A program made the translations under genes and the position numbers. The notes beneath the pieces were generated by a model, which was not told the DNA's origin, made no database searches, and saw only the letters and a program-made list of their open reading frames with translations. From Deltaproteobacteria bacterium (GTDB lineage Bacteria > Myxococcota_A > UBA796 > CAJQPC01), in assembly GCA_016717595.1 (NCBI GenBank), contig JADKFE010000010.1, positions 1 through 49,030 of the forward strand: a stretch of 49,030 nt of DNA, written 5' to 3'. Of this stretch, positions 1-27,414 are shown piece by piece (positions within the stretch are counted from its first letter, which is position 1; each line of letters starts with the position of its first letter).

Positions 1-1054
1 TTGTCGTTGTTGTAGATGTTGACGTCATGCTCTATGGAGGAGAGGCTCTCAAGGCCATCGATGCTCTCCAGCTTCGGGTTGTCGCAGACATTTAAACTGC
101 CCACCGAGGAGAGGGCCTCAAGGCCCGCCATGCTCGTCAGGGAGGAGTTGTCAGACACGTCCAGTTGATCGCGCACATCTTGAAGGCTAGAGAGGCCGGT
201 GAAATCCTTCAAGCTGTAGTTGTCCTCGACTGTGAAGTTGGTCCCGATGGAGACGAGCCCCTCAAGGCCCTCAAGGCTCTTGAGCCCTGAGTTGCCGGTC
301 AGATTAATCCTACCGGCCACGGAGATCAGGTTCTCAAGGCCCTTGAGATTTTTGAGCCCGTGGTTGGACTCCATGATGAGGCTCCCGCTCACGGCGGTGA
401 GACAGCTTAAGGACGCGATCTGTTCGGTGGTGGCGGAGGTGAGGTATAGGGTTCCACCTAAGCTGCGCTCACAATACCCAGCACAGAACTCCTTCATCTC
501 CCAGGAGAATATATCACCACGGGCGCTGTCGGAGGGCAACCAACCAGACGGGTTCGTGTCGTCACAGTCATCCGCGCCAACGAAGCCGTCGCCATCGCCG
601 TCCTCATCCAGGGTGCTCGGATCGCAGTCGTTGTCCAGACCGTCGAACGGGATCTCTTCAGTCCCCAGCGCGGGGTTGGTGTCGTCACAGTCCTCCGCCA
701 TGTTGACCCCGTCGCCGTCGAGATCGTCATCAAGGGTGCTCGGATCGCAGTCGTTGTCCACGCCGTCGTAGGTGACCTCGGCGGCGTCGGGGTGTACCGC
801 CGGGTCATCGTCGTCGCAGTCCTCAGCGAGCACAAACCCGTCGCCGTCGGCGTCCTGGGCTCGGTCTGGGTGTCGGCCTCGGTGTCGGTCTCGGTGTCGG
901 CCTCAGTGTCGGTCTGGCTGTCGGTCTGGCTGTCGGTCTGGGTGTCAGTCTGGGTGTCAGTCTGGCTGTCGGTCTCGGTGTCTTCCCCAGGCTCCTTGTC
1001 ACCACAGGCGGAGAGGAGGCTGAGGGCAAACGTGACGGAGAGGAGGGGGCGCAT
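1..1054 (-). CDS. Secreted lipoprotein (paralog B): lipobox signal, (TDTQ)n linker, 3 MopE/TSP3-like Ca-binding Cys/Asp repeats, LRR domain; 3' end runs off window; apparent -1 frameshift near 857-859
   Basis: Translation from 1054 gives MRPLLSVTFALSLLSAC (lipobox LLSAC) then DTETDSQTDTQ repeats. After ~nt 857 the YDGxDNDCDPST...DGDG motifs and LSGLEGL-type LRRs read only in the +1 frame. Expected CCCC is read as CCC when compared with paralog A. Confidence 0.55.
868..990 (-). repeat. 12-bp tandem coding repeat (gacacccagacc-like, ~10 units) encoding a (TDTQ/TDSQ/TETD)n linker
   Basis: Direct inspection of 868-990: gtctgggtgtcg/gtctcggtgtcg units on the plus strand. Confidence 0.7.
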
Positions 1055-1126
1055 CTTGGCTCCGAGGGTGATTCCGTGAACTGGATCAGAGGTCGTGACA
1101 AGCTAGCCAGCGCGGCGTCGCGAAGG

Positions 1127-3264
1127 TCAGGCGCCGGGCAGGTGCCCAGATTGTCGGTGTTCGTCACCGTGCCAGTGAACGCGGTGAGCTGCGCGACGAG
1201 GGTGCCCACCTCATCTTCGCACAAGCTGTCGTTGCTCGGCACAGAGATGTCCCAGCCCACGGTGGTGAGGGCGTCGAGGTCGGAGAGGCTCGTCAGCGAC
1301 GGGTTGTCCGAGACGTTGAGGTAATAGCTCACTTTAACGAGCGCGTTGAGGCCCGAGAGGCTCGTCAGCGACGGGTTGTCGCGAACATAGACAGAGCCGC
1401 TCAACGAGGTGACATTGGGGAGCCCCGAGAGGCTCACCAGCGAGGCGTTGTCTTCGATGCGAAGGTCCCTCTTTAAGTTGGAGAGCCCTTCGAGGCCCGA
1501 GAGGCTCGTCAGCGAGGCGTTGCTCTTCACCTTGAGGGAGTCGCCAATGGTGGTCAACGAGTCAAGGCCCGAGAGGCTTGACAGGTTGCTGTTGGAGGCG
1601 ATCAACAGGCCTCCCGCCAACGAGGTGAGGCCCTCAAGGCCGGTGAGACGCTCCAATGCGTAGTTTCCGAAGATGTGAGTCTCCCCACCGATGAAGGTCA
1701 GGCCCGAGAGCCCCGAGAGGTCTAAGAGCTGATAATTGTAGTCAATGCTGACGTCTCCACCCACGGAGGAGAGGTTCTCAAGGCCCGAGAGGGTGGTTAT
1801 CGTCCTGTTGCTGTACACGATGAGATCACCGTCGATGGCGGTGAGACAGGTCAAGGCGGCGACGTCGGTGGTCTTGGCGGCGGAGAGGTCCAGATCTCCG
1901 CCGATGCGCCGCTCACAGTACCCCGTGCAGAAGAGGGAGGTGAAGCTGGCGCCCAGATCTCCGGAGTACGTGTCAAGGGCCAGCCACCCGAGCGGGTTGG
2001 TGTCGTCGCAGTCGTCCGCCATGGCGAGGCCGTCTCCGTCGAGGTCGTCATCGGGGGTGCTCGGATCACAGTCGTTGTCGAGGCCGTCGTAGGCGATCTC
2101 GACCGCGTCGGGGCTCACCGCCGGGTCGCCGTCGTCACAGTCCGCCGCCGCGACGAGGCCGTCACCGTCGAGGTCGTCGTCGCGGGTGCTCGGATCACAG
2201 TCGTTGTCGAGCCCGTCGTAGGGTAGCTCGGCGCCGCCCACGGTTGAGTCGCCGTCGTCGCAGTCCGCCGCCGCGACGAGGCCGTCGCCGTCGAGGTCGT
2301 CGTCGAGCGTCGTCGGGTCACAGTCGTTGTGGAGTGCGTCGTAGGGCCGCTCGGCGCCACCCACGGTTGAGTCGCCGTCGTCGCAGTCCGCCGCCGCGAC
2401 GAGGCCGTCACCGTCGAGGTCGTCGCCGCGGGTGCTCGGATCACAGTCGTTGTCGAGGCCGTCGTAGGCGATCTCGACCGCGTCGGGGCTCACCGCCGGG
2501 TCGCCGTCGTCACAGTCCGCCGCCGCGACGAGGCCGTCACCGTCGAGGTCGTCGTCGCGGGTGCTCGGATCACAGTCGTTGTCGACGCCGTCGTAGGGCA
2601 GCTCGGCGCCGCCTAGGGCTGAGTCGCCGTCGTCGCAGTCGGCCGCCGCGACGAGGCCGTCGCCGTCGAGGTCGTCGTCGAGGGTGCTCGAATCACAGTC
2701 GTTGTCGACGCCGTCGTAGGTAGCTCTGCGCCGCCCACGGTTGAATCGCCGTCGTCGCAGTCGTCCGCCGCGACGAGGCCGTCGCCGTCGAGGTCGTCGT
2801 CGAGGGTGCTCGAATCACAGTCGTTGTCGACGCCGTCGTAGGGTAGCTCTGCGCCGCCCACGGTTGAGTCGCCGTCGTCGCAGTCGTCCGCCGCGACGAG
2901 GCCGTCGCCGTCGAGGTCGTCGTCGGGGGTGCTCACGTCACAGTCGTTGTCGACGCCGTCGTAGGGGTAGCTCGGCGCCGCCCACGGCGGGGTCGCCGTC
3001 GTCACAGTCGTCCGCCGCGACGAGGCCGTCGCCGTCGAGGTCGTCGTCGGGGGTGCTCGGATCACAGTCGTTGTCGACGCCGTCGTAGGGCCGCTCTGCG
3101 CCGCCTATGGTTGAGTCGCCGTCGTCGCAGTCAGCCGCCGCGACGAGGCCGTCGCCGTCGCCGTCTTGGGGCTCGGTTTCATCCTGCGTGTCCTCCGCGG
3201 GCTCTTTGTCGCCGCAGGCGGAGAGGAGGCTGAGGGCGAGCGCTGCGGCGAGGAGCGGGCGCAT
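1127..3264 (-). pseudogene. Secreted lipoprotein (paralog A): lipobox signal, ~9 tandem MopE/TSP3-like Ca-binding repeats, C-terminal LRR domain; disrupted by compensating +1/-1 indels in G-runs (~2958 and ~2719) and probable loss of stop at ~1130
   Basis: MRPLLAAALALSLLSAC starts at 3264. Repeats DGLVAAADCDDGDSTVGGAELPYDGVDNDCDPSTPDDDL read in frame 0 from 3264 to ~2960, in frame 2 between ~2960 and ~2719, then in frame 0 again. Unit at 2955 has gtagggg (4 G) and unit at 2715 has gtagg (2 G), versus gtaggg in the other units. The C-terminal ...NLGTCPAPDL reads through where paralog C ends CPSS*. Confidence 0.55.
2100..3170 (-). repeat. ~120-bp tandem coding repeats (about 9 units), each encoding one ~40-aa Cys/Asp-rich Ca-binding module
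   Basis: The unit gagtcgccgtcgtcgcagtc[c/g]gccgccgcgacgaggccgtc recurs at ~2247, 2367, 2492, 2614, 2742, 2862, 2985 and 3105. Confidence 0.8.
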
Positions 3265-3345
3265 CGGGGCTCCAACGGTGATCCCGTCGATGGGACCGTG
3301 CGTGTACGACACCATGGAGGCCGCAACAGGCGGGATGGATCACCC

Positions 3346-3600
3346 CCTCGTGAGGCTCAGGAGCTCGGGCAGGTGCCGGTGTTTTTGCTGTTGATCACCG
3401 AGCCCGAGAAGGCGGTGAGCCGGGCGAGGAGCGCGTCCACCTCCTCGCGGCGAGGGGTGGCGTCGTAGAGGATGGTGCTGGGCGATGGGGCGGAGGGCAT
3501 CCAGACCATCGAAGCTCGTCAGCGAGCTGTTTTGGTCGAGGGGGAGGCCCCTCTGCGCGGCGTTGTCAACGCCACGGAGACGCGGGGCGTGGCGCCTCAA
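3346..3600 (-). pseudogene. C-terminal remnant (~85 aa) of a third paralog of the LRR lipoprotein family, itself frameshifted
   Basis: Translation gives ...LPLDQNSSLTSFDGLDAL..., then in the +1 frame YDATPRREEVDALLARLTAFSGSVINSKNTGTCPSS*, matching the paralog A C-terminus EDEVGTLVAQLTAFTGTVTNTDNLGTCPA. It is followed by the conserved RBS/ATG junction of paralog A. Confidence 0.5.
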
Positions 3601-3653
3601 CGCCGACCTCCCGTCTCAGCGGCCGGGGCGCGGGGGCCGCTAAGCCGGAGCCA

Positions 3654-5185
3654 CTACGCCCCCACCCCAGCCGCCACCGTCAACGCCGGCCTCGGCGACT
3701 CCTCCCCGCGCGCCGCCCGCGCCACAGAGTGCGGCGCGAACTCCGCGAACGCCCGCTTGTAGTCGGCAAAGGCGCCCCCCGCGCGCACGGCGTGCATCAC
3801 CGCGAGGCCGGTCTGGGCGTCGCCCTGGGCCAACACCGCCTCCACCCAGGCCCAGCGCGCGGAGGTGGCGCGCAGCTCGACGCGGCCGCGGCTGGGCTTA
3901 AACGCCGTCTCCAGGCGCTTGAGGCGGGACTCCACCACCTTCAGGCCCACGAAGCCATCATTGAGCATGGGCGTGTTGAGCTTGGGCACAAAGGGCGCCA
4001 TGCCGATGGCGACGGGGTGGATCGCGCCGAGCTCCAAGGAGAAGCGCACGAGCTCGTCGAGATCGGCGTCGGTCTCGCCGGGCACGCCGATCATCATGTA
4101 GACCTTGAGCACCTTGTAGCGGTGCTCGGCGGCCTGGCGGGCGCAGTCGATGAGGTGCTGCTCGGTGGTGCCTTTGGACATCTCCCGGCGCAGGCGCTGG
4201 CTCGCGGCGTCTGAGGCCACGGTGAGGGTGCTGTAGCCGCCTTGGCGCAGAAGCTCGGCGATGCGGGGCTTGCGGGCCACACGGTCGGCGCGCAGGGAGC
4301 TGATGCCGACGCCCTTCCCGGCGGCGATCAGCGCCTCTAAGATGGGGACCAGCTCGGGGTGATCGGAGATCGCCGCGCCGACGAGGCCCACCCGGGGGGC
4401 GTAGTCGGGGACGAGGGAGAGCACGCGGTCGGCGGTGACCAGGCGCATCCCGCCGTTCGTGCTGCGGCGCATCACGCAGAAGGTGCACTGGCGATGGCAG
4501 CCGCGCTCCCCTCCAGCAGAAACATGCTGGAGAGCTCGGCGTCGGGGGCGATGATGCGGCTGCGGGCGGGGAGCTCGGCGTCGGAGGCCTTGGCGATGGT
4601 GGGCAGGCGGTCGCCGTCGCGCTCGGGCAGGTAACCGCCGGGCAGGGCGGCCACGGCGGCGCGTAAGGCGTCCAAGCCGCCGGAGATCGCGGCCTCGACG
4701 GCGGGCACCACCGTCTCCTCAGCCTCGCCCAGGAGCATGGCGTCGACAAACGGCGCGGCGGGGAGCGGGTTCGAGAAGGTGAGCGGGCCGCCGAGCAGCA
4801 CCAGGGGATCGTAGCCCGTGCGATCTTCGCGGCGGGCGGGGATGCCCGCGAGCTCAAAGGCCGTGAGCATCCCGGCGAGCTCAAGCTCGTAGGCCAAAGA
4901 CACGCCGATGATGGGGAAGTCCCGCAGCGGGGTCTGCGTCTCGTAGGTGCACAGGGGCAGGCGGGAGCGGCGCCAGGCGTCTACGTCGTCGGGTAAAAAC
5001 GCGCGCTCGACGGCGAACCCGGCGCGGGTGAGCAGCTCGTGAATCCACTGGAAGCCAAGGGACGACATGCCCGCGCGGTACGGCGAGGGGTAGAGCAGGG
5101 CCACGCGCGCCTGACCGGGGGTGAAGCCCGGCCCACGCTCGCGGGCGAGGCGCTCGACGATCGGCTCGTTGTGCTTCCAGGGCAT
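3654..5185 (-). CDS. B12-binding-domain radical SAM protein, split by a frameshift near 4508-4511
   Basis: The N-terminal ORF (5185-4472) has a cobalamin-binding-like fold (VALLYPSPYRAGMSSLGFQWIHELL). The radical SAM motif GCHRQCTFC is read only after shifting frame at the junction gaggggagcgcggctgccat. The C-terminal ORF (4475-3654) carries the TIM-barrel part (MMIGVPGETDADLDEL). Confidence 0.6.
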
Positions 5186-5262
5186 AGACTTCCTGCGAGG
5201 GGGGATGTACAGGTTATGAAGGTTCGAGCCCGCGCGCCCGCGCTTGTGAGGATTCTCCCCCT

Positions 5263-6962: not shown

Positions 6963-6965
6963 AGC

Positions 6966-9811: not shown

Positions 9812-12037
9812 TCAGACGCGCTGGGCGCCTCGGGCGCGGCGCAGGCGATCGGACTCCCCTTCAGCGCGGCGGGCGGCGCGCACCTCGTCCTCCAAGCGGC
9901 GCAGAGCCTCTCCGGCGGCGGAGACCCGGTCTTGCTCGCCGATCAGCTCTTGGCGGGCTTTGCGGGCGGCGCCGCCGATGTCGAGGAGGCGCGCCGCCGT
10001 GGCCGTGAGCTTGGACTCCCAGCGGGCGTGCTCCTCTAAGGTGGCCTCGCGGTCGGCCTTGGCGGCGAGCAGCTCGGGGCGCTCGGTGGGGTCGGGGCGC
10101 TGACCGGCCTGCTCCATCGTCTCGACGCGGCGCAAGCGGGCCTCGATCTGGGCGAGGTCTTGGGCGATGGCCTCGGGGCGCAGCTCTTTGAGCCGACCAT
10201 CGAGGCGATCGGCCTCGGCGGCCAGGTCAGCGGCCTCGGCGCGCAGCTCGACGACGGTGCGGCGTAAGTCAGCCTCGGCGGGGGTGGGCAGCTCGGCCTG
10301 GCCGATCGCCAGCTCTAAGGCGGCGAGGGACTCCTCAACCCGGGCGAGGAGCTGGCCGCCGCGGGTCTTGGGCGGAGGCGGCGCGACCACCGGCGCGGCG
10401 ACGTTCGGCGGCGCAGGGGCGGCGGCGGCAGGTTCAGCGGCGGCGGCGCCGCGCTCCACACGCACCTGGGGGCGGCTGGCGAGCAGCTCGGGCAGACGCT
10501 CGGGGGTGACGTGGGCGCGCAGGTCTCGGCCATAGGCCAAGGGCACCTTGTCGGCGTTGCGCCCGGCGTTGGAGGCGGTCACCATCACGACGACGGAGAT
10601 GAGGATCATCACCGGGAGCGCCGCCATGGCCGAGCCGAAGGTGAGCCCCACGGCGATGGCCCACAACACCCACATCGGCCCCAGCAGGTTGGGCAGGGTG
10701 CGCATCACGCGGTTCACCCGGCCGTCTTCGTCTTCAGCGCGGCGGCGTTTTTTGGCGACGAAGCCCCGGCTCTCGGCCAAGGCGGCGAGGTTATCGACGG
10801 TGTCTTCGCTCACGCCAGAGACGAGGCGGAAGCGGCGCTGGTCGAGCACGGGGCTCACCAACAGGGCGTCGATGGGCAGCCCAGCCCGCAGCGCGACGCC
10901 GCGGGCGAGGAGCTCGGCGTCGGTGATCTCCTTGGACTCCGCCGTCCACTCTTCAGGGAGCTTGGGCAGGCCGAGCTGCACCACCACCTTGTTGATCGCC
11001 TCGGCGGCGTAGCGGGCGCTCGTCTTGCCCGCCCGGGCGCTGCGCCGGGCTTGCCTGCGGCTGGCTTGGCTGGAGTGGCGAAGCTCCAGCTCAAAGCGGC
11101 CTTCAGGCAAGGCCAACGGCGCGGGCTCTAAGGTGTAGCTGGGCTGGGGTGGCGGCGGCGGCGGGGGCTCGTCTTTGGGCGGCGCGCGGCGGTTCTGAGC
11201 CCGCGGCGGCGGGGCGACGATGCGCCCACGAAGGGCCTCGGCGACCTCAGCGGCGCCTTGGGGCCGCTCGTCTGGGGAGAGGCGCAAGAGCGCGTGGATG
11301 ATGGCGCAGAGGTCATCCGGCAGCTCAGGGCGCAGGCTGGCGAGGGGCTCGACCTCGCCGGAGAGCTGGCGTTTGAGCACGGCGGCGGCGTTGGGCCCGG
11401 CGAAGGGCGCCCGGCCTGAAGCGGCGTAGTACAGCACCGTGCCCAAGGAGTAGAGGTCGCTGCGGGGGTCGGCGCGCTCGCCGTCGTAGACCTCGGGGGC
11501 GGCGTGCCCGGCGGTGCCCAAGGCCCCGGTGTGCCGGGTGGACTGCCACTGCTCTAGCCGGGCGAGGCCAAAGTCGGTGAGCGTCGCCACGCCCGCGTCG
11601 TCGATCATCACGTTCGCCGGGGTGATGTCGCGGTGCAGCACGCCGGCGCGGTGGGCGGCGGCGAGCACGTCGGCCAGCCGCGCGCCGATGGCCCGCAGCG
11701 CCGTGCCGCCGATGGGGCCTTCAGCGGCCACCCGCTCGGAGAGGGTGCGGCCGGGGTGGTACGGCATCGACAAGGCGAGGTGCCCGTCGAGCTCGTGCAG
11801 CTCTTGGGCGAGCAGCGCGCCCTCATGTTTGATGAGCCCCGCCGTCATCACCTCGCGGCGCAGGCGCTCTCGGGTGGAGGCGTCGCCGACGAGGTGGGCG
11901 TGGAGGATCTTCAGCGCGACCCGGGCGCCGCGCACCCGATCTTCAGCCAGCCAGACCGTCGCCATGCCCCCACGGCCCAGCTCACCGATGAGCGTGAACC
12001 GCTCACCGAGCACCGCGCCCCGGGCCAAGGCGCTCAA
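9812..12037 (-). CDS. Membrane-anchored Ser/Thr protein kinase with Pro-rich linker, TM segment and C-terminal coiled coil
   Basis: Hanks kinase motifs GELGRGGMATVWLA, VALK, HRDITPANVMI, DFG. Hydrophobic VLWAIAVGLTFGSAMAALPVMILISVV. Ends 15 nt before hcrC-like start. Confidence 0.8.
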   Translation of the reverse strand: MSALARGAVLGERFTLIGELGRGGMATVWLAEDRVRGARVALKILHAHLVGDASTRERLRREVMTAGLIKHEGALLAQELHELDGHLALSMPYHPGRTLSERVAAEGPIGGTALRAIGARLADVLAAAHRAGVLHRDITPANVMIDDAGVATLTDFGLARLEQWQSTRHTGALGTAGHAAPEVYDGERADPRSDLYSLGTVLYYAASGRAPFAGPNAAAVLKRQLSGEVEPLASLRPELPDDLCAIIHALLRLSPDERPQGAAEVAEALRGRIVAPPPRAQNRRAPPKDEPPPPPPPQPSYTLEPAPLALPEGRFELELRHSSQASRRQARRSARAGKTSARYAAEAINKVVVQLGLPKLPEEWTAESKEITDAELLARGVALRAGLPIDALLVSPVLDQRRFRLVSGVSEDTVDNLAALAESRGFVAKKRRRAEDEDGRVNRVMRTLPNLLGPMWVLWAIAVGLTFGSAMAALPVMILISVVVMVTASNAGRNADKVPLAYGRDLRAHVTPERLPELLASRPQVRVERGAAAAEPAAAAPAPPNVAAPVVAPPPPKTRGGQLLARVEESLAALELAIGQAELPTPAEADLRRTVVELRAEAADLAAEADRLDGRLKELRPEAIAQDLAQIEARLRRVETMEQAGQRPDPTERPELLAAKADREATLEEHARWESKLTATAARLLDIGGAARKARQELIGEQDRVSAAGEALRRLEDEVRAARRAEGESDRLRRARGAQRV

Positions 12038-12113: not shown

Positions 12114-12944
12114 CTATTGTGGGGTGGCCGCCGCTGGCAAACCTTTCCCCAAACGGGCCATGGTGACCCACGCGGCGACGTCATCGACCTCCCAAGAGTT
12201 GTCGGACCCACGCCAGAGCAGGCGGCCGTCACCGTCGAGCACCAGGATGTGCAGGCTGTGGAGGATGTCGCCTTGGCTCTCGACCCGGCTGGCCCCGGCG
12301 CGTAACAACAGCGTCTTGAGCGCGTCGAGCTCTAAGCGGGCGAAGGTCCACGTTGCGGGGTTCGCGCCGCGCTCGGCGCCGTAGGCCTTGAGCACCTCCA
12401 GAGAGTCCCGGGCGGGGTCCAAGGTGACGCTCACGATGCGCCCGTGGCCGAGCTGGCCTTGAAGCTCCTTGAGCTTGCTCGCCAACAAGGGGCAGGCCTC
12501 GGGCATGGGGCAAGACGTGAACAAGAAGGTGAGCACCGTCGGCACGCCTTGGCCCGCGCCGATGAGCACCGGGCCGTCCACGCCGGGCATCGTGAGCGCC
12601 GGGAGCTGCTCCCCTTCAGCCAGGGCGATCACCGCGTCGGGGGCCAGGGCCAGGGGCTCCTCGTGGCCGGTGACCTTGGCGCCGATGATCCGCACCGTGC
12701 CGTCTTCAGCGGTCATCAGGTTCGCCTGGATGAGATCCCCAGGGCGAAGCTGCCGGGCGAGGTTGGGATCGACGACGAAGGTGGTGGCGCCCTCCTCAAA
12801 GGCGCCGGGCACGGGGCCGTGCTCCAGCCGCACGCTGTGCTGGCCGACGTCGCGCACCACGCCGTTGACGGAGTAGGTGTCTCCAGCGACAAAGTTACAG
12901 CCGGCCAGAGCGAAGACGGCGATGAGCCCGCGCATCAGAGGCAC
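12114..12944 (-). CDS. SCO1/SenC-family copper chaperone lipoprotein (thioredoxin-like)
   Basis: LAGC lipobox and FTSCPMPEACP (CxxxC) motif. Confidence 0.65.
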   Translation of the reverse strand: MPLMRGLIAVFALAGCNFVAGDTYSVNGVVRDVGQHSVRLEHGPVPGAFEEGATTFVVDPNLARQLRPGDLIQANLMTAEDGTVRIIGAKVTGHEEPLALAPDAVIALAEGEQLPALTMPGVDGPVLIGAGQGVPTVLTFLFTSCPMPEACPLLASKLKELQGQLGHGRIVSVTLDPARDSLEVLKAYGAERGANPATWTFARLELDALKTLLLRAGASRVESQGDILHSLHILVLDGDGRLLWRGSDNSWEVDDVAAWVTMARLGKGLPAAATPQ

Positions 12945-13314
12945 CTCCTGAGGTTGGCAAGCCTATTCACGCGGGCGCGCCGCGTCGACGGGGCGTCGTG
13001 TCGCGGGTAAACTCCTCAGATGCCCGAGTCTCCCGAGATCCCCGCCTCTTTGCCACGACGCGCCCTGCGGCGGGCGGGCAGAGCCGCGCTCAAGGCTCTG
13101 GGCGGCGCGGTGTATTACGCGATCTACCGCGAGCTGCCGAACCCCAACGATCCCGACCCCTACTGGCGTGAGATGCACCCCGACCAAGACAAAGGCACGG
13201 GGCGCCAAGGTGGGGACTTTGAGCCCCCGCCGGGGATCTGAGGTCACACGCTGATGCTCCCGCCCGCTGCTGTGGATCGGGCTCACCGCCTTCGCCCAAG
13301 ACCCTGGGCCCCTC

Positions 13315-15126
13315 GTGGGCGACCTCTTGGGGCCGATGCCCCCGGCCACGACGCTTCGGGATGTAGACGTTCACCCGGAGTACATCCGGCTGCGCTTCAC
13401 CACCGACCGCGACTTCATCGTTGAGCTGACCCCAAGCCGTGACGGCGCCTCGCCGGTGTGCAGCGGCGGCGGCGCCGATCTCTACGTGCGCCTGGACCTC
13501 GACGCCGATCAAGAGAGCTTCGACTGGGAGCCCCTGCCGCCCATCGTCGATCAGCTCTGCGCCCGGATGGTGGACCACCCGCCGCGGTTCCCGACCTCGG
13601 AGAAGGTGTTGGCCCCCGTCGCGCCGCCGCCGGATCCCGAGCGCCCGGCGCTGCCGTTTCGACCGATGCACGTCGTCGGCGTCCTCTGGGCCGTGGCGGT
13701 CCTCGCCGCCCTGCCGCGGGCGCCCTTGGCCTGGGGGGTGGGCCTTCTCGCGCTCTTGATCCGCCTGGGGCTCTCCCCGCGCTGGATCCTCGTCGGCGGC
13801 GACGCGGCCTATGAGCGCCTGCTCGACGCGAGGGGGCGCGGCGACTCCAACCCCTACTACGGCGACGGCTGGCAAGGGTTGATGGGCCTCGTGTACACGC
13901 TCCTGGGCGAGCCCAAGACGACGGACTGGGTTCACCTCACGAACCTCGGCTTCTCGGCCTTGACCGTGGTGGCGCTCGTGGGGCTGATCTCGGCCTTGGG
14001 GGGCAGCCCCCTCGCCGCGGGCCTCGCCGGGCTCGTGTTGGCCGCGGCCCCGCTGCCGGTGCGGCTGGCGGCCACAGAGACCGACTTTGTGCTCGTCGGG
14101 CTCGTGCAGGTGCTCGCGCTCTACGGCGCGGCGCGTGGGGATCGCCGCGGGGCGGCCCTCGCGGCGCTCTCTGTGGGCCTCTCCGTTCACCTGCGGCCCC
14201 TGGGCGGCGCCTTCGCGCTTCTGCCCTTGGGCATGCTCGCCTGGCGGCGCTCGGCCTGGGCCGTCGTGTTGGGCCTGGGGCTCTGCGCCTGGCGCGCGGT
14301 GGAGCTGCTGCCGCTCGTGCGTGAGGGCAGCGGCGTGGGGGTCATCCCCTTCGGTCGGCTTCTGGAGACGGACTTCTGGGTCAAGCGCCTCAACCCCTTG
14401 GGCCGCGCCCCGGCGCTGCACCTCAGCCCCTTGTGGTCGCCGTTGGCGTTGCCGCTCCTCGCCGTGGCCGCGGTGCAGCTCTCCAAGCCCGAGACCCGCC
14501 GCGCCTGGATCTGGCCCTTGGGCTTGGGCGTCGTGCTCAGCGAGCTGCCGTACCTGCCGAAGACCTCTCCCCTTGGCGATCCCCTGCGGTTTTTGCTCCC
14601 GGCGACGGCGATGTGGGCGGGGCTCGCGGGGTTTGGCGCGGCCTTGGCCTGGGAGGGCGGCGCCAAGGCCCGCCTGGTCCTGGCGGTGGCGGCCCTGAGC
14701 TTCGTCCCCCCATGGCTCTCAGGCCAGCCGCGCTGGACGTGGCAGGTTGAGCACCTGGCCTTCGTCGAGGCCACCCGACTCGCCCCCGAAGGCGCCGAGG
14801 TGCTCTTTGACCCGGCCTTTGACGAGAACGGCAAGATCAGGATGTGGCTCAACACCCGGGGCGGGGCGCGGTGGCGGCCTTGGGCGCTGGGAGAGACCCC
14901 CGCCGAGGGCGCCTTTGTTTACCTCGGCAGCGCCGATCACCACCGGCGTTTAGAGGCCGGCGGCGCCGGGCCGAGCTTGGCCCAAGGCTGCGCGCTCACG
15001 CCGCTGACCACGATGGAGCTGCCGCCCGAGACCGACGGCTGGATTGAGCTCGGCGACGCGCCGATCCCCGCCGGGCTCTACCGGGTCGGGGCCTGCGGCC
15101 AGGGCTCAGGCTCCCCAAACCCCTGA
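13315..15126 (+). CDS. Polytopic integral membrane protein, possible GT-C (PMT/ArnT-like) glycosyltransferase
   Basis: 603 aa, a ~110-aa soluble N-terminus followed by more than 10 hydrophobic helices. The start may be GTG at 13316. Confidence 0.5.
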   Translation: MGDLLGPMPPATTLRDVDVHPEYIRLRFTTDRDFIVELTPSRDGASPVCSGGGADLYVRLDLDADQESFDWEPLPPIVDQLCARMVDHPPRFPTSEKVLAPVAPPPDPERPALPFRPMHVVGVLWAVAVLAALPRAPLAWGVGLLALLIRLGLSPRWILVGGDAAYERLLDARGRGDSNPYYGDGWQGLMGLVYTLLGEPKTTDWVHLTNLGFSALTVVALVGLISALGGSPLAAGLAGLVLAAAPLPVRLAATETDFVLVGLVQVLALYGAARGDRRGAALAALSVGLSVHLRPLGGAFALLPLGMLAWRRSAWAVVLGLGLCAWRAVELLPLVREGSGVGVIPFGRLLETDFWVKRLNPLGRAPALHLSPLWSPLALPLLAVAAVQLSKPETRRAWIWPLGLGVVLSELPYLPKTSPLGDPLRFLLPATAMWAGLAGFGAALAWEGGAKARLVLAVAALSFVPPWLSGQPRWTWQVEHLAFVEATRLAPEGAEVLFDPAFDENGKIRMWLNTRGGARWRPWALGETPAEGAFVYLGSADHHRRLEAGGAGPSLAQGCALTPLTTMELPPETDGWIELGDAPIPAGLYRVGACGQGSGSPNP

Positions 15127-17130: not shown

Positions 17131-18604
17131 ATGTCCGGCAACACCTATGTGGTCCTGATTGGTGTCAACGAGTACCCCAAGCTTGGGGCGGGCGCCTCGC
17201 TCAAGGGCTCCTGCAACGACATGCGCCACTGGCTCCGCTTCGCCCGGGTGAGCCTCGGGGTGCCCGGCGAGCAGGTTCAGCTCCTCACCCACCCGGCCCT
17301 TGAGGGCGAAGACGTGCGGCTGCCCAAGGGCCACCACCGCGGCGCGAGCTTGGCCGAGGCGAACGGGGCGATCGACGCCCTCATCCATTGGCTGCAAGAG
17401 AACCCCACGGGCACCGGGCTCATCGTGTACTCCGGCCACGGCGGCCACATCAACCCCGGCGACGACCCCAACGCCACGGACTTTGACGGCGACCGCCTCG
17501 CCTTGGGCCTCAGCGACGCGGGAGATCACCGACGGCACCCTCCGCGGCGCCCTCGTCGTTCAGCAGCTTGACCTGCGCCTCGCCGCCTTGGGCTTGAACG
17601 AGCGCGTGACCTTGGTGATCGACGCCTGCTATGGCGACCTCAACGTGCAGCGTTTTGACCGGGAGCTGATCACCGCCGAGCCCCAGCCCGACGCCACGAC
17701 CGGCCTGCGGGTGCTGCTCTCCACCGCCGTCGGCGCGGCCAGCTACGAGGCCTACATCGCCGGTCAGTGGCAGAGCGCCTACTCCTTCGCGCTCCTCACC
17801 TTGCTCAGCCAGTGGGGCAACGCCCAGGTGGGCGGCGTTCACATCGTCCGGGCGAGCCACCGCGAGCTGACCTTCCGGGCGCGTGAGCTGCTCAACGTGC
17901 TCGGCTACACCGACCAGGCCCCGGCCTTCGCGGGGGCGGCGCGGGCGCTGGACGCCCCGTTCAACAACCCGTCGATCTTTGAGGTGCCGGTGAGGCCCTC
18001 GTGGGTGCCGGACGGCAACCGAAAGATCAAGGAGCTGGGCGGAGAGTCTGACGACCTGGGCGTCTGGACGTTGAAGACCGGCAGCACCATCCTCGCGACG
18101 GGGCTGGTGAACAACTCCGGCGCGGCGGTGAGCTTCAACGGCGGCGGCTCGACCATCCAGAACGGCAAGGCGATGTGGTACCTCCGCAGCACCGGGGCGC
18201 CGCAGAGCTTTGGCAGCCTCACGATGGAGTGGCTGGCGCAGACCGCCAGCGGCGGCTCGATCTCGTGGAACGTTCCCTCCAACCTCACTTATGCCGAGAC
18301 CGAGGACTACGCGCCGTCGATGACGACGATCACCACGGCCCCGGCGGGCACCTCCTTCGGCAACTTCAGCATCAACGACGGCAACAGCGACCCCAAGAGC
18401 ATGTGGGTGTCCGTCGAGGTGACCTCCAACGGCGCGGGCAGCTACAAGGTCAACACCCTCTCGTTCACCGCGACGAGCAGCGTCACGCCCTACCAAGTCA
18501 CCCCGTTGCCCCCGCCCGGCTCAAGCTCGGGGAGCTGGACCAAGAACCAGTCCAACATCCCCTTCACCGTCGGCGTGACCTACTCCTCCAACACCCTCGG
18601 CTGA
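17131..18604 (+). CDS. Caspase-like (peptidase C14) protease with ~300-aa beta-rich C-terminal domain; split by +1 indel near 17519-17522
   Basis: YVVLIGVNEYP...GSCNDM...LIVYSGHGGH (His) in the first ORF. The catalytic Cys motif VTLVIDACYGD appears only in the second ORF's frame. Junction ...LSDAG|EITDGTL. Confidence 0.65.
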
Positions 18605-21083
18605 GGAACGGGCCACACCACCCGCAGCCCCATGGTCAGAAAGCGGCGCTCAGGGGTGTTGCCGAAGCGGGTGGCGAGGCGCTGGGTCATCGGGGGGGAG
18701 CCAAAAAAGCCCCCCCGCACCGCGCGGTGGGTGCCTGCCTCTGGGATATCCACCGCTCGCCCAGCCTGAACTGGCCCTCGCACCGACCACCAGTTGCGGC
18801 ACCAAGTGCGGGCGTTTCCGGCGAGGTCACGCACGCCGTAGGGGCTCTCGTCCGCCTCAAACTCCCCGACCGAGAGCAGGCCGGGCGGCGAAGGAACGGA
18901 GCCCAACACCGCGACCAGCGTGGCTCTAGCTCCCGGCCCCAAGGGGTGTACCGCCCGTCCACACCGCGCCCGGCCTTCTCGATCTCAAGCTCGTTGGGCA
19001 GGTGTCCGCCCATCCAAGCGGCGGCGCGCGCGGCGGCGTCCCACGAGATCGCCGTCACCGGATGATTGACCTCCCCGGGACGGCCGAGCACCACACGGTC
19101 CCCGCTGCGCACGAGATACTGGTCTTTTATGCTGACCCAGGGCCAACAACTCTCCACCCCCGCCTCATCCCCAGCGGCGATGAGCGCCTCCAAAAACGCC
19201 GCGTACTCCCCCAAGGTCACCGGGAAACGCCCCAAGACGAAGCCGTCTACCCACACCCGCTGCCGGGGCAGGCTGTCGGCGGCGAAGGGGTCTCCGCCGA
19301 CGATGCAGTAGCCCGGCGGGATGTAGACCTGGTCGTCACGAAGCTCGCCGGGCTCGGGGATCACGATGAGCGCGGGCTCACCCCCCTCGGGAGGCACGCC
19401 GTCCCAGCGCCCGGCGCGCTCCATGAGCACGGGGTAACGAACGGTGACGCCGTCGGCCTCCAGGGTGACGAGCCAAGATCCCCGGGGCACGGTCACCTCA
19501 CGCAAGGGCGTCACGCCGAGGCGCCGCTCGGGCTCGGGCACGAGGCGACGACCCTGCTCGACGAAGCGGTGCAGCCAGGCGACGGCGGGCCGGGACGTGC
19601 GGATCGACAGCGCGCCGTCGCCCTTGAGGTAGGCCGCGTGTCGCCCGCGGTCGTGGCTCGCGAGCAGCAGCTCCGCCCGCTGCGTCGCCAACGGATCAAG
19701 CTGGCGATCGGCGCGCTCGAGCTCGTCGCGGTAGTGGTCGGCGAGGAGCGCGTGGGCCTCGGGAAGCTCGGGATCCCGGTTGAGCGCGGCGCGGAGATCC
19801 TGATGCCAGGCGACCTCTCGTAGGGTCACCTCGGACTCTAAGGCGGCGGCGCGGTCCTGCATCTCCCAGATGGGCAGCTTGGACTCGACGGGCGCTTCAG
19901 CGCTCAACGACTCCAAGAGCGAGGCGGCGTGGGCCCGAAGCGCCTCGGCCTCCCGCTGGAGCTTGAGGATCCCCGGGCGCTGGGCCTCGGCGCGGCGCGT
20001 CTGGGCGAGGGCCTCGGCGCGGCGCAACGAGCCGTCGAGCCACAACGAGAGCGCCTCGGCCATCGCGCCGGCGTCGGGGTAGCGGTGAATGGGGTCGGGC
20101 ATCAGCGCCCGGCCGCAGATGTGGCGCAGCTCCGGGGGGAGCTCCGCGCGCTCGATGGCCTCGGGCCAGCGCGGCGGGTCGGAGACGAGGCGCCGCCAGA
20201 TGAGCTTGGGGTCGCCCTCCAGGGGGCCTCGACCGCACAGGACGCTGTGCAGCACGGCGCCCAGCCCGTACACGTCCGAGGCTGGCCCCACCTGATCGTG
20301 CTGGCCCCGCGCCTGCTCTGGCGACATAAACGCCGGGGTGCCCAGCACCGCGCCGCCCAAGGTGACGCCCTCGTTCTCCCAGACCGGCGCCCCGGCGAAG
20401 GGCGGCAGCTCCGGCGCGCCGATCCACCGCGCCAGGCCCCAGTCCATCACCCGCACCTCACCGAAGCGGCCCACCATGAGGTTCGCGGGCTTGAGGTCGC
20501 GGTGCAGCACCCCGCGGCTGTGGGCGTACCCGACGGCGTCGCAGATGCTTCGCACCAGGGTGACGAGGCGGTGAACCACGTCGGGGCCCACGGCCGGGCC
20601 GGTGATCATCTCGCCCAGCGTCTTGCCATCCACCAAGGTCATCGTGAACCAGAGGCGCCCGTCAAGAAGCTCTCCGCGGTCCATCACCGAGACGACGCCG
20701 GGGTGCTGCAGCCGCGCCGTGGTCGCGATCTCCCCCAGAAACCTCGCCCGCGCGGCGGCGCTCTCCAGGAGCTCCCAGCCGAGCACCTTCATCGCCACAG
20801 GCACCCGCAGCTTCCGATCCCAGGCCCGGCGAACCTCGCCCATGCCGCCCCGGGCGATGAGCCCGAGATCGTGGTACCGCGCCTCGGGCGACTCAAAGGC
20901 CGCCACGGCCGCGGGCTCCCCGTCTGGGGTCCAGGTGGTCTCGTCGTGCATGATGAATGCTACAGCGCGGAGGGATCCCCGGTCAAGGCGGAGGCGCTGC
21001 CGCGCCCTTGATGGCCCAGGCGGCGATTGACGCCGGGGGGTGGCGGCGGGCGCCTCGCCGGGTGAGAGTACAGCGTGCCTCAC
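18580..21083 (-). CDS. Ser/Thr protein kinase fused to a C-terminal formylglycine-generating-enzyme (FGE/SUMF1) domain; frameshift near 18937-18947
   Basis: Kinase motifs GGMGEVRRA, AMK, HRDLKPANLMV, DWG. FGE-like block YTPWG...SPYGVRDLAGNARTWC...RAVRGGFF...GLRVVW continues in another frame at a cccc/gggg run. Confidence 0.7.
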
Positions 21084-21100
21084 CTCCTCTGGAGCCGCTG

Positions 21101-21712: not shown

Positions 21713-21728
21713 TGAGCCCGGCGAGCGC

Positions 21729-22724: not shown

Positions 22725-22843
22725 GGCGGCGACCTCCGGGCCGGAAGGGTCATACGCCAGCGCTCGAGGTTTGGCAAGAACAGACCGATCATCGTCAATC
22801 CCGCCAATGGTCGTGGCGCGGCGCCGCCCCTACACTGTCCCCC

Positions 22844-23686: not shown

Positions 23687-24332
23687 GTCACCCGTCGTCA
23701 TCATCGGCCGCAGCAGCTCCCACTTCACCCGCGTCGCCACCCTGTTCGCCGCCGAGCTCGGCCTGCCCTGGACCCTGGAGGTGGTCCCCCGCCTGCTCAG
23801 CCACGACCCCGCGGACTTCGGCGGCCACCCCGCCCTCAAGCTCCCGACGCTCATCACCCAAGGGGCGCCCGTCTACGGCGCGGAGAACATCTGCCGCAAG
23901 CTCACCGCCCTCGCCGGGCGCGCCGGAGACCCAACCCTCGTGCTGCCCGAGCACGTCCACGACGACACCGCCCGGAACGCCCAGGAGCTTATCTGGGTGG
24001 CGATGAGCGCCCAGGTCTCGATGCGCCTGTTGAAGCCCGGGGAGGAGCCGCCCACACCGTACCTGCTCAAGACCCAGGCCGGGCTCCGGGGCGCGCTGGC
24101 CTGGCTCGACGCGCGCCTCGACGACACCCTCGCCGCCCTGCCCACGCCGCGTCAGGTGAGCGTGCTAGAGGTCACCCTCTTGTGCCTCGTCGATCACCTG
24201 CGCTTTCTCCCCACCTTCCCCCTCGACGCCTACCCCCGCCTGTTGGCCTTCGCCGACGCCCAGGGCCAACGCGAGTCCGCCCAGCGCACCGTCTTTCATT
24301 TTGACCCCCGCCCGCCCAGAGATCCCCGATGA
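23679..24332 (+). CDS. Glutathione S-transferase-like protein
   Basis: Thioredoxin-like N-terminus VVIIGRSSSHFTRV with a helical C-terminus. Its start overlaps the previous stop. Confidence 0.55.
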   Translation: MPESPVVIIGRSSSHFTRVATLFAAELGLPWTLEVVPRLLSHDPADFGGHPALKLPTLITQGAPVYGAENICRKLTALAGRAGDPTLVLPEHVHDDTARNAQELIWVAMSAQVSMRLLKPGEEPPTPYLLKTQAGLRGALAWLDARLDDTLAALPTPRQVSVLEVTLLCLVDHLRFLPTFPLDAYPRLLAFADAQGQRESAQRTVFHFDPRPPRDPR

Positions 24333-24805
24333 AGCCCCTCACCCTCCCCGCCCTCGACCCCGCCACCGTCACGCCGCGCGCGGGCTCGGGCTACCCAGAG
24401 CCCTTCCGCTCCCGGGTGCTCCCCCGCGAGAAGCGCGCGCTGGGCGACGCCCTCGGCCTCACCCGCTTCGGCGTGAACCTCACGACCCTCGCCCCGGGGC
24501 GCGAGTCCTCAATCCGCCATCACCACTCCCACGAGGACGAGCTCGTCTACGTCTTGGAGGGTGAGCTGGTGCTGCGCACCGACGCCGGAGAGCAGCGCCT
24601 CACCGCGGGCATGTGCGCGGGCTTCCCGGCGGGATCTGGCGACGCTCACCAGCTCGTGAACCGCGGCGACGCCCCCGCCCGATTCTTAGAGATCGGCAGC
24701 CGCGACCCCGACGACGCCGTCGAGTACCCCGACGACGACCTCGCCGTCCACAAAGACGCCACGGGCGCCTACGTGTTCACCCGCCGCGACGGCTCCTCGC
24801 CCTGA
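24329..24805 (+). CDS. Cupin-domain protein
   Basis: HHHSHEDELVYVLEGE...GDAH cupin motifs. ATGA overlap with the GST-like gene. Confidence 0.65.
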   Translation: MKPLTLPALDPATVTPRAGSGYPEPFRSRVLPREKRALGDALGLTRFGVNLTTLAPGRESSIRHHHSHEDELVYVLEGELVLRTDAGEQRLTAGMCAGFPAGSGDAHQLVNRGDAPARFLEIGSRDPDDAVEYPDDDLAVHKDATGAYVFTRRDGSSP

Positions 24806-24825
24806 GCGCGTCGGCGCCGGGCCCC

Positions 24826-25932
24826 TCAGCCCAGGCGCTCCAGCTCTTTGATCAGCGCCTGATCCCGCTCGGAGACGAAGTTGATCACCACGCCCGTGCG
24901 CCCCGCGCGGGCCGTGCGACCGGCGCGGTGCAGGTAGTTATCTACCCGCGACGGCAGGTTGTAGTTGATCACCCGGCCGACGTGCTCGATGTCGAGGCCT
25001 CGGGCGCCCAAGTCCGTGGCGATGAGCAGGTCCACCTCGCCGTCGCGGAACCTCTTGAGGTTCACCCGGCGCTCGACGCGGTCCATCTCCCCGCGGAACA
25101 CGGCGCAGGGCCGCTTGATGCGGGCGAGCTGATAGACCACCTTGTCACACTGCTCGCGGGTGTTGGTGAACAGGAGCGTGCCGCCCTCGTTCGGCGTGGC
25201 CAGCTCGATCTGGAGCTGCTCAAAGCGGCGGCCATCGACGATGCGGCGGTTGATCGTGTGCAGCGTCGAGACCGGGCGGTGGCTGCCCCGGCTGCGCAGC
25301 TCGACGGGCATGTTGAAGGTGCGCTGGGCGAGGCGCGCGACGGGCGGCGGCAAGGTCGCGGTGAACAAGGCGAGCTGGCGACCGGCCGGCGTGGCGTTCA
25401 CCAGATCACCGGCCTGGGGCAAGAAGCCCAAGTCCATGAGCTGATCGGCCTCGTCGAGCACCATCATGCGCACGTCGCCCAACGACACGATCTTTCGCTC
25501 GACGAGCTGGCCCAGGCGACCGGGCGTGGCCACGAGCACCTCAAAGGCGCCCTTCACGTTCTCCCGGCTCTTGAGCAGGTCTACGCCGCCGAGGGCCATG
25601 CGCACCCGCAGGCGGGTGTCGTGGGTGAAGGTCTTGAACACCCGGGCCACCTGCTCGCCGAGCTCGCGGCTGGGCACGAGCACCACGGCGCGGGGGGCGC
25701 TCTCGGCGGTGACCGGGCTGCCGGTCTCCTCTAAGCTCTTGATCTTGTGGAGGATCGGCAGGGCGTAGGCCAGCGTCTTGCCGCTGCCCGTCTCGGCGAC
25801 GCCCACCACCGATCTCCCGGCGAGGAGCTCCGGCATCGCCCGCGCCTGAATCTCCGTGGGCCGGGTGATGCGCTGGGCGTCGAGGGTGGCCTGAAGGGTG
25901 GGCAGCAGCCCAAGCTCATAGAAGCTGTTCAT
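24826..25932 (-). CDS. DEAD-box ATP-dependent RNA helicase
   Basis: Motifs AETGSGKT, PTREL-like SRELGEQV, DEAD (VLDEADQLMD), SAT-equivalent FTAT, HRAGRTARAG. Start at MNSFYELGL; the longer ORF-track start would overlap tRNA-Glu. Confidence 0.8.
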   Translation of the reverse strand: MNSFYELGLLPTLQATLDAQRITRPTEIQARAMPELLAGRSVVGVAETGSGKTLAYALPILHKIKSLEETGSPVTAESAPRAVVLVPSRELGEQVARVFKTFTHDTRLRVRMALGGVDLLKSRENVKGAFEVLVATPGRLGQLVERKIVSLGDVRMMVLDEADQLMDLGFLPQAGDLVNATPAGRQLALFTATLPPPVARLAQRTFNMPVELRSRGSHRPVSTLHTINRRIVDGRRFEQLQIELATPNEGGTLLFTNTREQCDKVVYQLARIKRPCAVFRGEMDRVERRVNLKRFRDGEVDLLIATDLGARGLDIEHVGRVINYNLPSRVDNYLHRAGRTARAGRTGVVINFVSERDQALIKELERLG

Positions 25933-26053
25933 CGAGGCTCCGATCCTGCCCTGGGGTTCGCCACACGTCACGATGTGCCCGCCGCCGTGACGTGCAGGGC
26001 TCCAGAGTACACAACCCCCTCCGACAGACGCCGAAGGGGGTCGTGGGGGAGAT

Positions 26054-26130
26054 GGTGACCCCAACGGGATTCGAACCCGTGTTAGCGGAATGAAAATCCG
26101 CCGTCCTGGACCTGACTAGACGATGGGGTC
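26054..26130 (-). tRNA. tRNA-Glu (anticodon UUC), CCA encoded
   Basis: Reverse complement GACCCCATCGTCTAGTCAGGTCCAGGACGGCGGATTTTCATTCCGCTAACACGGGTTCGAATCCCGTTGGGGTCACCA folds as a cloverleaf. 7-bp acceptor stem, anticodon loop TTTTCAT, close to E. coli tRNA-Glu. Confidence 0.85.
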
Positions 26131-26138
26131 GAGGGGTA

Positions 26139-26211
<73 letters not shown>

Positions 26212-26249
26212 ATAGAGCGCAGGCGAAGTAACAGGGGGGGCCGCGCCGG

Positions 26250-26786
26250 TCAACCCGCCGTGCGCTTGAGGCCCGCCTTGGCCTCCTCGTGATCGGGCTT
26301 GAGGGCGAGGATCGCCTTAAACTCGCGGTTGGCGTTCAGCTTCATCGCCAAGGCCTCATACACGTTCGCCAAGGCCAGCCGGTACTCAACCACCTGCGGA
26401 TCCTTGTCTACGGCCTTGCGGAAGTAGGTCAAGGCGCCCTTGTTGTCGTTGCCGTTGGCCTGGATGATCTTGCCCAGGCGGTAGAAGGGCTCGCCCATCG
26501 GCGGATCGAAGCCTACGGCCTGGTGGTAATGAAAGAACGCCTCCTTGGTGCTGGAGAAGCTCTCGGCCTTCTTCGCCAGCTCGATCTGCTTCTCGGCCTG
26601 CTGGCGACGGCCCTTGGCGTCGGCCTCGACGAAGCGTTTTTTGTACTCCTCGTTGCGCGGGTCAAACTCCATCGCGAGCTTGAAGTTTCTCGCGGCCTTG
26701 GACCACTCGTTCGCGGCGACGTCCGCCTCGCCGAGCTTAAAGAAGCCCCGGGCCTTCTTGAGCCGCTCGATGATCGGGGCCTTCAA
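26250..26786 (-). CDS. TPR-repeat protein; the reading frame stays open upstream through a Pro/Ala/Lys-rich linker, possibly the C-terminal part of the J-domain protein
   Basis: TPR-like helical repeats (YRLALANVYEALA, ALTYFRKAVDKDP). No stop in this frame upstream of MKAP for more than 150 nt. Confidence 0.55.
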   Translation of the reverse strand: MKAPIIERLKKARGFFKLGEADVAANEWSKAARNFKLAMEFDPRNEEYKKRFVEADAKGRRQQAEKQIELAKKAESFSSTKEAFFHYHQAVGFDPPMGEPFYRLGKIIQANGNDNKGALTYFRKAVDKDPQVVEYRLALANVYEALAMKLNANREFKAILALKPDHEEAKAGLKRTAG

Positions 26787-26832
26787 GGCGTCTACGGCGG
26801 GGGAGGAGGCCTTCTTGGGCTCGGCGGCGGGC

Positions 26833-27414
26833 TTAGGCGCCTCGGGCGGCGGCGGCGGGGCTGGCGGCGCCTGGCGCCGGAGGGGTGAAACGTACGGTGT
26901 AGGGATCTGCGGTGGTGGCGGCGGCCGGCGACGCGCCGCCCGGACGCCCCACGTTCGGCGGCGAAGGCGGCGGGGGTCGGGCGGGCGGTGAGCGGGGGCT
27001 GGCCCCGGCGGGCGGCGGCGAGGCGGTCGTCGTGACCGGGCGCGGCGGCGCGGGGCTCGGGCGGGTGGCGGCGGAGGCGCCTGCGCTGGCCGGGGGCTTG
27101 GGCTTGGGCTTCCGCTTCTGGGCGGTGACGAGGTCCTGGTCGTACTGGGCGCGGGCGCGCTCGTCCCCCAAGGTGCGATAGGCCTGGTTCACCCCGGCGA
27201 ACACGTCCTCCAGCATCTTCTCGAGGCCGCCGAGGTCTTGGCGGTAGTAGCGGTCGGGGTGAAACCGCCGCGAGAGGTTGTGGTAGGCGTTCTTCAGCGC
27301 CGTGCGGTCAAAGTCCTCCGCCACGCCGAGGAGCTCGTAGTGTGTGCCGTCGCGCAGCACCTCGCTGAGCCGGTGCAGCTCGGCCACATCTTCAGGCTTG
27401 AGGCCGCCGCTCAT
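26833..27414 (-). CDS. J-domain (DnaJ-like) protein with Pro-rich tail
   Basis: HYELLGV...AYHNLSRRFHPDR J-domain with HPD motif. ATGA overlap with the xerC-like stop. Confidence 0.7.
   Translation of the reverse strand: MSGGLKPEDVAELHRLSEVLRDGTHYELLGVAEDFDRTALKNAYHNLSRRFHPDRYYRQDLGGLEKMLEDVFAGVNQAYRTLGDERARAQYDQDLVTAQKRKPKPKPPASAGASAATRPSPAPPRPVTTTASPPPAGASPRSPPARPPPPSPPNVGRPGGASPAAATTADPYTVRFTPPAPGAASPAAAARGA

Follow-up and report, generated by a model that had tools for sequence, protein, structure and literature searches.

Do the interrupted reading frames in a stretch of Myxococcota DNA record genes that the organism has lost, or were they introduced when the sequence was made? The stretch, 49,030 nucleotides of contig JADKFE010000010.1 from a metagenome-assembled genome (MAG) and referred to here as the window, had been described in the original prediction as carrying at least seven to eight disrupted open reading frames (ORFs), due to homopolymer-type sequencing error rather than to pseudogenisation. 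Each of the listed breaks was found, with small coordinate corrections. The deposited sequence contains eight one-nucleotide breaks in six genes, seven of them confirmed and one (1130-1131) probable, and at each site a full protein is regained by adding or removing one base. We conclude that these breaks are very probably homopolymer consensus errors and not pseudogenes, phase variation or recoding; the conclusion was drawn from comparative sequence evidence.

Eight one-base breaks in six genes

The affected genes and their break sites are listed here, the break at the paralog A stop being the probable one.

1-1054, minus strand: paralog B, a MopE-repeat/leucine-rich repeat (LRR) lipoprotein gene that runs off the window start
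857-859, minus strand: paralog B break, one base short, coding-strand CCC (GGG as deposited) where CCCC is expected
1127-3264, minus strand: paralog A, a MopE/LRR lipoprotein gene
1127-1135, minus strand: paralog A stop break, TGA (1127-1129) one base out of frame after GCGCC
2719-2720, minus strand: paralog A deletion of one base (GG) at repeat motif CTACC-TACGAC, giving a unit of 122 instead of 123 nt
2964-2967, minus strand: paralog A insertion of one base (GGGG) at repeat motif CTACCCCTACGAC, giving a unit of 124 instead of 123 nt
3654-5185, minus strand: radical SAM (YgiQ-like) gene, CCCC at 4508-4511 where five bases are expected
17131-18604, plus strand: caspase-like Peptidase_C14 gene, GGG at 17520-17522 one base too long, between the His and Cys boxes
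18580-20951, minus strand: Ser/Thr kinase and FGE-sulfatase fusion gene, CC at 18909-18910 where CCC is expected, within the FGE domain
26250-27414, minus strand: DnaJ-TPR gene, net gain of one base within 26845-26890, stop at 26833-26835

All eight lesions are changes of plus or minus one nucleotide, and seven of them lie in G/C runs of 2-5 nt. The eighth, in the DnaJ-TPR gene, can be placed only within an almost pure G/C tract in which the exact run is not assignable, and the predicted location of every break at a short G/C homopolymer thus holds for seven of the eight. There are no nonsense substitutions, insertion sequence (IS) insertions or larger deletions among the eight events. G/C runs of at least 3 nt make up 14.7% of the window bases and contain all four of the unambiguous deletions (chance association 0.147^4, ~5e-4), so homopolymers are enriched above chance at the break sites. 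Six of the ~24 genes in 1-27.4 kb are broken, and the break rate is ~16 per 100 kb. No slippery motif common to the sites is visible, and methylation-type motifs (CCWGG, GATC) were rejected as a consistent context, adjoining only two sites.

The G+C content of the window is ~70%, as a consequence of which long spurious ORFs are present in all six frames, and the coding frames were set using third-position GC (GC3) together with Pfam matches. GC3 agrees with the corrected frames, and full single Pfam matches return when the fully corrected proteins are re-scanned, as expected from the earlier claim that one base at each site restores a conserved domain.

In the radical SAM gene the N-terminal frame ends with MFLLEG followed by a stop, ERGCHRQCTFC is read when the frame is moved by one base, and the Radical_SAM_N2 and Radical_SAM Pfam domains lie in these two different frames. 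The break falls directly before ERGCHRQCTFC, and therefore immediately ahead of the CxxxCxxC motif as had been predicted, and one base added to CCCC joins both frames. Public contigs aligned to the window are labelled L001-L032; five bases are present at this position in all eight of those that align here, as CCCCC in L002, L006, L007, L008, L009, L010 and L012, and as CGCCC in L001. No other indel separates the window from L009 over the 2.76 kb compared, at 97.9% identity. Twelve of the thirteen other members of the radical SAM protein cluster are 496-515 aa long, with one further 415-aa partial, and the protein is 99% conserved across populations.

The caspase-like gene is interrupted where it was predicted to be. 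One base fewer (GG or CCG) is present at the equivalent of 17520 in all six assemblies that cover it (L002, L014, L015, L016, L017 and L018), a tblastn alignment of an intact ortholog changes frame at 17520, and nine other members of the protein cluster are 490 aa. Correction raises the Peptidase_C14 score from 16.4 to 32.7 bits, and the protein then passes the Pfam cut-off. The kinase-FGE break is also present, at 18909-18910 and not near 18940 as first placed, and the equivalent sequence is CCC in L002, L014, L016, L017 and L018, and CCCT in L015. As deposited, the FGE-sulfatase profile is split into segments 3-142 and 167-255, and the corrected protein matches 3-255 of 255 positions in one stretch; intact 790-aa kinase-FGE proteins are encoded in L015 and L016. 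The break in the DnaJ-TPR gene, raised earlier as a possibility at ~26800-26990, lies in a Pro/Ala-rich linker region of almost pure G/C sequence and can be placed only to within ~45 nt. Relatives encode a single-ORF protein of 383 aa (L015) or 385 aa (L016), and the true frame in L016 reads RFTPP and, further on, PEA(A/P)KPAAEPK.

The other four sites lie in the two lipoprotein paralogs. In paralog B the lipoprotein signal peptide, read from 1054 on the minus strand, and the MopE/LRR body lie in different frames, with the change at 857-859; CCCC is present at the equivalent position in paralog A, in agreement with the predicted CCC for CCCC, and in L002 (ACC GAG CCC CAA GAC). Corrected paralog B gives MopE and Receptor-L/LRR Pfam matches. 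The tblastn alignment of paralog A runs through frames -3, -1 and -3 in succession, and its repeat units are 124, 123, 122, 123, 129, 123, 123 and 129 nt long. The only place where the 124- and 122-nt units differ is the C-run of the motif GAGCTACCC(C)TACGAC, which has tract lengths of 2, 3 and 4 in the paralog A repeats. The 122-nt unit carries the deletion where one was predicted (~2719), and the insertion lies 6 nt from the predicted ~2958. At the 3' end, paralog A reads TGC CCG GCG CC ahead of TGA, one base short by comparison with four related copies that end in GTCPSS and a stop where the window has GTCPAP. The out-of-frame stop gives a 103-aa read-through across the paralog B start, and the tblastn alignment of an intact 535-aa homolog in L006 stops at 1132, residue 534 of 535. 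A one-base break at 1130-1131, as suspected originally from the lost stop, is therefore probable on sequence comparison.

Could the lipoprotein breaks be phase variation, with slipped-strand mispairing at short C tracts (857, 2719 and 2964) switching two surface proteins? The genes concerned are predicted to encode tandem-repeat surface lipoproteins; two of the indels occupy the same position of the repeat unit, with tracts of 2, 3 and 4; and one break lies near the 5' end of paralog B. Loci of this type in Neisseria, Haemophilus and Campylobacter are likewise interrupted by one-base changes in G/C tracts of surface protein genes. However, homopolymers become hypermutable from about 7 nt at contingency loci, and the tracts here, at 2-4 nt, are far below that length; moreover, unlike phase-variable loci, the window has the same error of plus or minus one base in cytoplasmic enzymes, as do sister assemblies. 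We consider phase variation very unlikely, and because the tracts are too short it is effectively excluded.

Proteins of the family to which both paralogs belong combine MopE-like Cys/Asp repeats in tandem, each of 41/43 aa (encoded by 123/129-nt units, of which paralog A has eleven), with a Receptor-L/LRR domain, and they end in a conserved GTCP(S/A)(S/P). A search of 5.8 billion proteins with corrected paralog A returned no relative with more than 59% identity. The lipoprotein ortholog in L002, a 4x-coverage contig with a SPAdes-style name, contains an in-frame TAG in a MopE repeat (CDD-stop-DPAVGG) at ~19985-19990, which may be a genuine nonsense mutation or else an error due to low coverage.

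Breaks private to single assemblies

Over 7.1-49 kb, two sister MAGs of the same species, JADJIW (L014/L021) and JADJYZ (L015/L020/L029), share 98.3-99.0% identity with the window. Comparison with related assemblies, along the lines that the original prediction had proposed, shows relatives to be intact at 4508, 17520, 18909 and the DnaJ-TPR site, and the break is private to the window assembly at each of these, which are all of the sites that can be checked. Between 7.1 and 49 kb the only private frame-changing indels relative to JADJYZ are those at 17520, 18909 and the DnaJ-TPR gene, with a possible fourth, of 2 nt, at 13254-13266. The radical SAM proteins of JADJIW and JADJYZ are absent from the 14 cluster members; in the sister MAGs the gene may be frameshifted and annotated as a pseudogene, or it may lie off those contigs.

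The sister assemblies have private breaks of their own, at 11415, 18844, 26749 and in the J linker in JADJIW (L014), and at 12354 and 45533, together with two compensating deletions in the DnaJ-TPR linker, in JADJYZ (L015/L029). Splits are also found in contigs from JGI (Ga0558118, Ga0558119) of the same species as the window: infB in L028 (10734-13627) is split into 786 and 178 aa by a 1-nt deletion at window-equivalent 36202, glnS in L012 (10077-12370) into 574 and 190 aa, and the large subunit gene of xanthine dehydrogenase (XDH) in L013 (5880-8208) into 582 and 197 aa. L017 likewise carries private splits. No breaks were found in the genes covered by contigs with SPAdes-style (NODE_) names (L002, L008, L022 and L032), the short-read origin of which was judged from those names, nor in the genes covered by the other short public contigs L009, L016, L018 and L031. 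A metagenome scan using the XDH protein yielded only a 5.4-kb contig, which covers no break site.

These comparisons bear on whether the lesions are genuine, with one-base slippage fixed in several accessory genes through very recent inactivation or as a strain-level loss-of-function polymorphism. Homopolymers are favoured by polymerase slippage as well as by sequencing error, and all of the breaks are in genes that look non-essential or vary between strains. However, none of the checkable breaks is common to any relative, even at 98-99% identity, and the absence of nonsense or larger lesions among eight events also counts against inactivation. The sister long-read assemblies have different private sets, and splits in essential genes such as infB (L028) and glnS (L012) cannot be biological. 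The radical SAM protein is strongly conserved, yet its break falls directly before the Cys motif. When codons downstream of the breaks are read in the corrected frame, the ratios of nonsynonymous to synonymous substitution (dN/dS) are 0.025-0.18 in the radical SAM, caspase and kinase-FGE genes, the same as upstream and with no relaxation; individual values are 0.025-0.03 for the radical SAM gene, 0.18 for the caspase-like gene (0.16 upstream) and 0.11 for the kinase-FGE gene. Purifying selection downstream of the breaks is still strong. We regard recent inactivation as unlikely.

Programmed ribosomal frameshifting or another form of recoding could in principle restore the full-length proteins, and a single +1 or -1 shift per site would be enough. 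Frameshift sites should be conserved, however, and every ortholog is an uninterrupted ORF; both +1 and -1 shifts would moreover be required, in six unrelated genes within 27 kb. Recoding is an extremely improbable explanation, and the uninterrupted orthologs effectively exclude programmed frameshifting.

The provenance of the sequence is consistent with consensus error. The protein clusters to which the corrected radical SAM and caspase proteins belong contain deposited fragments that are identical to ORFs in the window: MBK9644899.1 (IPO67_07060, 237 aa) to the radical SAM fragment, and MBK9644910.1 (146 aa) and MBK9644911.1 (IPO67_07120, 373 aa) to the caspase-like fragments. All three are on one 143,573-bp contig of an NCBI MAG with IPO67_* locus tags, and the window is a part of this contig. 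Exact-match queries with three other window sequences (an XDH subunit, the N-terminal radical SAM fragment and the FAD subunit) gave no hit, and the provenance was traced through the cluster members. Singleton et al. 2021 include both sister MAGs, JADJIW and JADJYZ, in their supplementary tables, where the two are assigned to Myxococcota UBA796 and MiDAS species midas_s_814 and have two coverage values each (20.4 and 12.3 for JADJIW, 32.4 and 30.3 for JADJYZ). The tables also contain a third MAG of midas_s_814, Rand_18-Q3-R56-63_MAXAC.001 (PMC8012365), which is likely to be the source MAG of the window. In that study Nanopore R9.4.1 reads were assembled in CANU; the assemblies were polished by Racon and twice by medaka, and a single Racon round with Illumina data followed (PMC8012365). 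According to Sereika et al. 2022 (PMC9262707), homopolymer indels in Nanopore consensus sequences shift the frames of called genes, and Illumina polishing is required when a bin has less than ~40-fold coverage.

The breaks resemble known R9.4.1 homopolymer errors in that one-base changes in runs fragment conserved genes and are private to one assembly (PMC9262707, PMC8012365); different private sets are present in sister MAGs, and a rate of ~16 per 100 kb could plausibly be left after partial polishing of a MAG with low or moderate coverage. They differ from typical errors of this kind in that the runs are short, at 2-5 nt, and the breaks are strongly clustered in a repeat-rich, strain-variable segment. 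According to the explanation that we prefer, the R9.4.1 basecaller and consensus step would have miscounted short G/C runs by one at eight places, and one round of short-read polishing would have left these miscounts in place. Consensus error is favoured because the lesions are private, single-base and bound to G/C tracts, lie in constrained genes, and belong to an assembly whose siblings come from a pipeline that leaves such errors. The intact relatives and the purifying selection on downstream codons likewise bear out the earlier preference for sequencing error over pseudogenisation.

Clustering in strain-variable DNA

Several observations weigh against consensus error. The breaks are clustered, with five in 857-4511 and none in 27.4-49.0 kb, which contains mostly housekeeping genes and was compared base by base with L020, L029, L031 and L032; under uniform placement the chance of finding no breaks in this segment is (27.4/49.0)^8, or ~0.01. 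The same clustering would be expected of real mutations on which selection had acted, and there are no breaks in 21.6 kb of core genes (topA, dprA, infB, nusA, rimP, pal and ftsZ), as recent inactivation would have it. R9.4.1 errors are most notorious in homopolymers longer than the 2-5 nt runs seen here, and local GC content is not raised at the break sites other than in the DnaJ-TPR gene. The four sites within 857-2967 have no near-identical comparator and were recognised by comparison of paralogs and repeat units; sister contigs JADJYZ010000037 and JADJIW010000040 probably extend over this region. Finally, the place of the window MAG in the Singleton project is deduced from the sister MAGs and from naming.

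GC-dependent loss of Illumina coverage was considered as a cause of the clustering and ruled out, only the DnaJ-TPR site being unusually GC-rich. The break cluster coincides with DNA that is paralogous, tandemly repeated and strain-variable, and we infer that short-read polishing failed in repeated or strain-variable sequence. The segment from 5.2 to 17.5 kb is also without breaks, save for a possible start-site problem at 13254-13266. The earlier statement that every functional inference in the window is affected was therefore too strong; no break lies in 27.4-49 kb or in 5.2-17.5 kb, this one place excepted.

One decayed gene is present in the same neighbourhood, a point in favour of recent inactivation.

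3360-3540, minus strand: remnant of the 3' end of an LRR lipoprotein gene, consisting of the last 29 aa and a shifted LRR fragment

The remnant has no start and lacks the N-terminal ~460 aa, and its alignment to the LRR lipoprotein covers only the last 29 aa (3446-3360), with a frame change near 3475-3490. The frame change had been predicted at ~3430 and attributed to sequencing error; it is present at the shifted position, and the attribution fails since 3449-3540 is identical in L008 (ENA ERZ17861834, a contig with a SPAdes-style name and 98% identity overall). A frame change common to an independent contig points to a genuine gene fragment, and on this sequence evidence the remnant is a real truncated gene. 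A lesion inherited in common with a relative, by which pseudogenes are recognised, was found here alone and at none of the checkable breaks among the eight.

A strain-variable island lies downstream of the radical SAM gene (window 1-3650; L002 15686-20800; L009 2777-5450; L006 3746-6171), and its variability would also suit recent inactivation. In the window it holds the LRR remnant and the two MopE/LRR lipoprotein paralogs. L002 has a defence-like pair, made up of an ATPase-like protein (497 aa) and a Cys-rich one (464 aa), and then two lipoproteins; L009 and L010 have an 86-aa protein with a PIN protein, plus a pentapeptide-repeat protein; and L006 and L012 have one 535-aa lipoprotein and an FGE-sulfatase protein.

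The spacing of the breaks recalls the decaying genomes of host-restricted pathogens and symbionts, in which frameshifted genes also lie close together and core genes are spared. Unlike the pseudogenes of such genomes, the broken genes of the window have no lesions common to relatives, no nonsense mutations, no IS elements and no relaxed selection, and there is one lesion per broken gene except in paralog A, which has three; the genome of the window organism is, in addition, large (~8 Mb) and of a free-living type. That some or all of the breaks are real, most plausibly those in the lipoprotein paralogs and other accessory genes, through very recent slippage at short C/G tracts that silenced surface and signalling genes in a UBA796 population of one wastewater plant, core genes being kept by selection, is a reading to which we give little weight.

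In the kinase-FGE gene, the region 18840-19145, spanning the passage from the inter-domain linker to the FGE domain, is hypervariable among strains and has many compensated indels; synonymous divergence (dS) from L015 rises from 0.046 upstream of the break to 0.26 downstream of it, a contrast that suggests recombination or diversifying change. The DnaJ-TPR linker (26780-27190) is wrong differently in each of the three MAGs, all probably Nanopore-derived. In L015 the two compensating deletions garble 25 residues and the ORF stays open, showing that an open ORF is no proof of a correct sequence.

Elsewhere the window has a gene set typical of Myxococcota. The accessory genes include MopE-repeat/LRR lipoproteins, the YgiQ-like radical SAM protein, a three-subunit xanthine-dehydrogenase-type enzyme, Ser/Thr kinases, an FHA protein, the caspase-like protein and the kinase-FGE fusion, and a XerC/D-type recombinase precedes a core block of topA, dprA, infB, nusA, rimP, cpoB, pal and ftsZ. 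A suspected break in a LarA-like gene (44174-44288) and others at infB/ylxR, nusA/rimP and dprA/smg proved to be ordinary gene overlaps, with no frame-changing indel relative to L029 or L031. At 31422, in the sequence for the Lys/Ala-rich C-terminal tail of topoisomerase I, the window and the sister MAGs differ by an in-frame length polymorphism of 15 nt. One further site stands outside the eight.

13254-13266, plus strand: possible extra problem, where a 2-nt frame offset separates the ATG of relatives from the gene body at 13315-15126

That ATG (MLPP(L/S)LLWIGL) is used in L013 and L015 for the gene of a 600-aa membrane protein, and L014 has the same length state as the window. A difference in start site or a further small indel is possible.

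Consequences for annotation

Six genes have been deposited as fragments or without a full-length protein: the two lipoproteins, the radical SAM protein, the caspase-like protein, the kinase-FGE fusion and the DnaJ-TPR protein. Such errors are carried into domain architectures, gene counts, pseudogene statistics and models trained on sequence, and the splits in L028, L012 and L013 imply that the same class of artefact is widespread in public long-read metagenomes. The other ~40 kb of the window is trustworthy at the level of reading frames. As an assembly artefact the breaks are of low biological interest, and their main use is as a caution. The organism, an uncultured member of Myxococcota class UBA796 from Danish activated sludge, would most likely carry intact genes at all eight sites; in the corrected frames these encode ordinary conserved proteins, and six gene models are to be amended.

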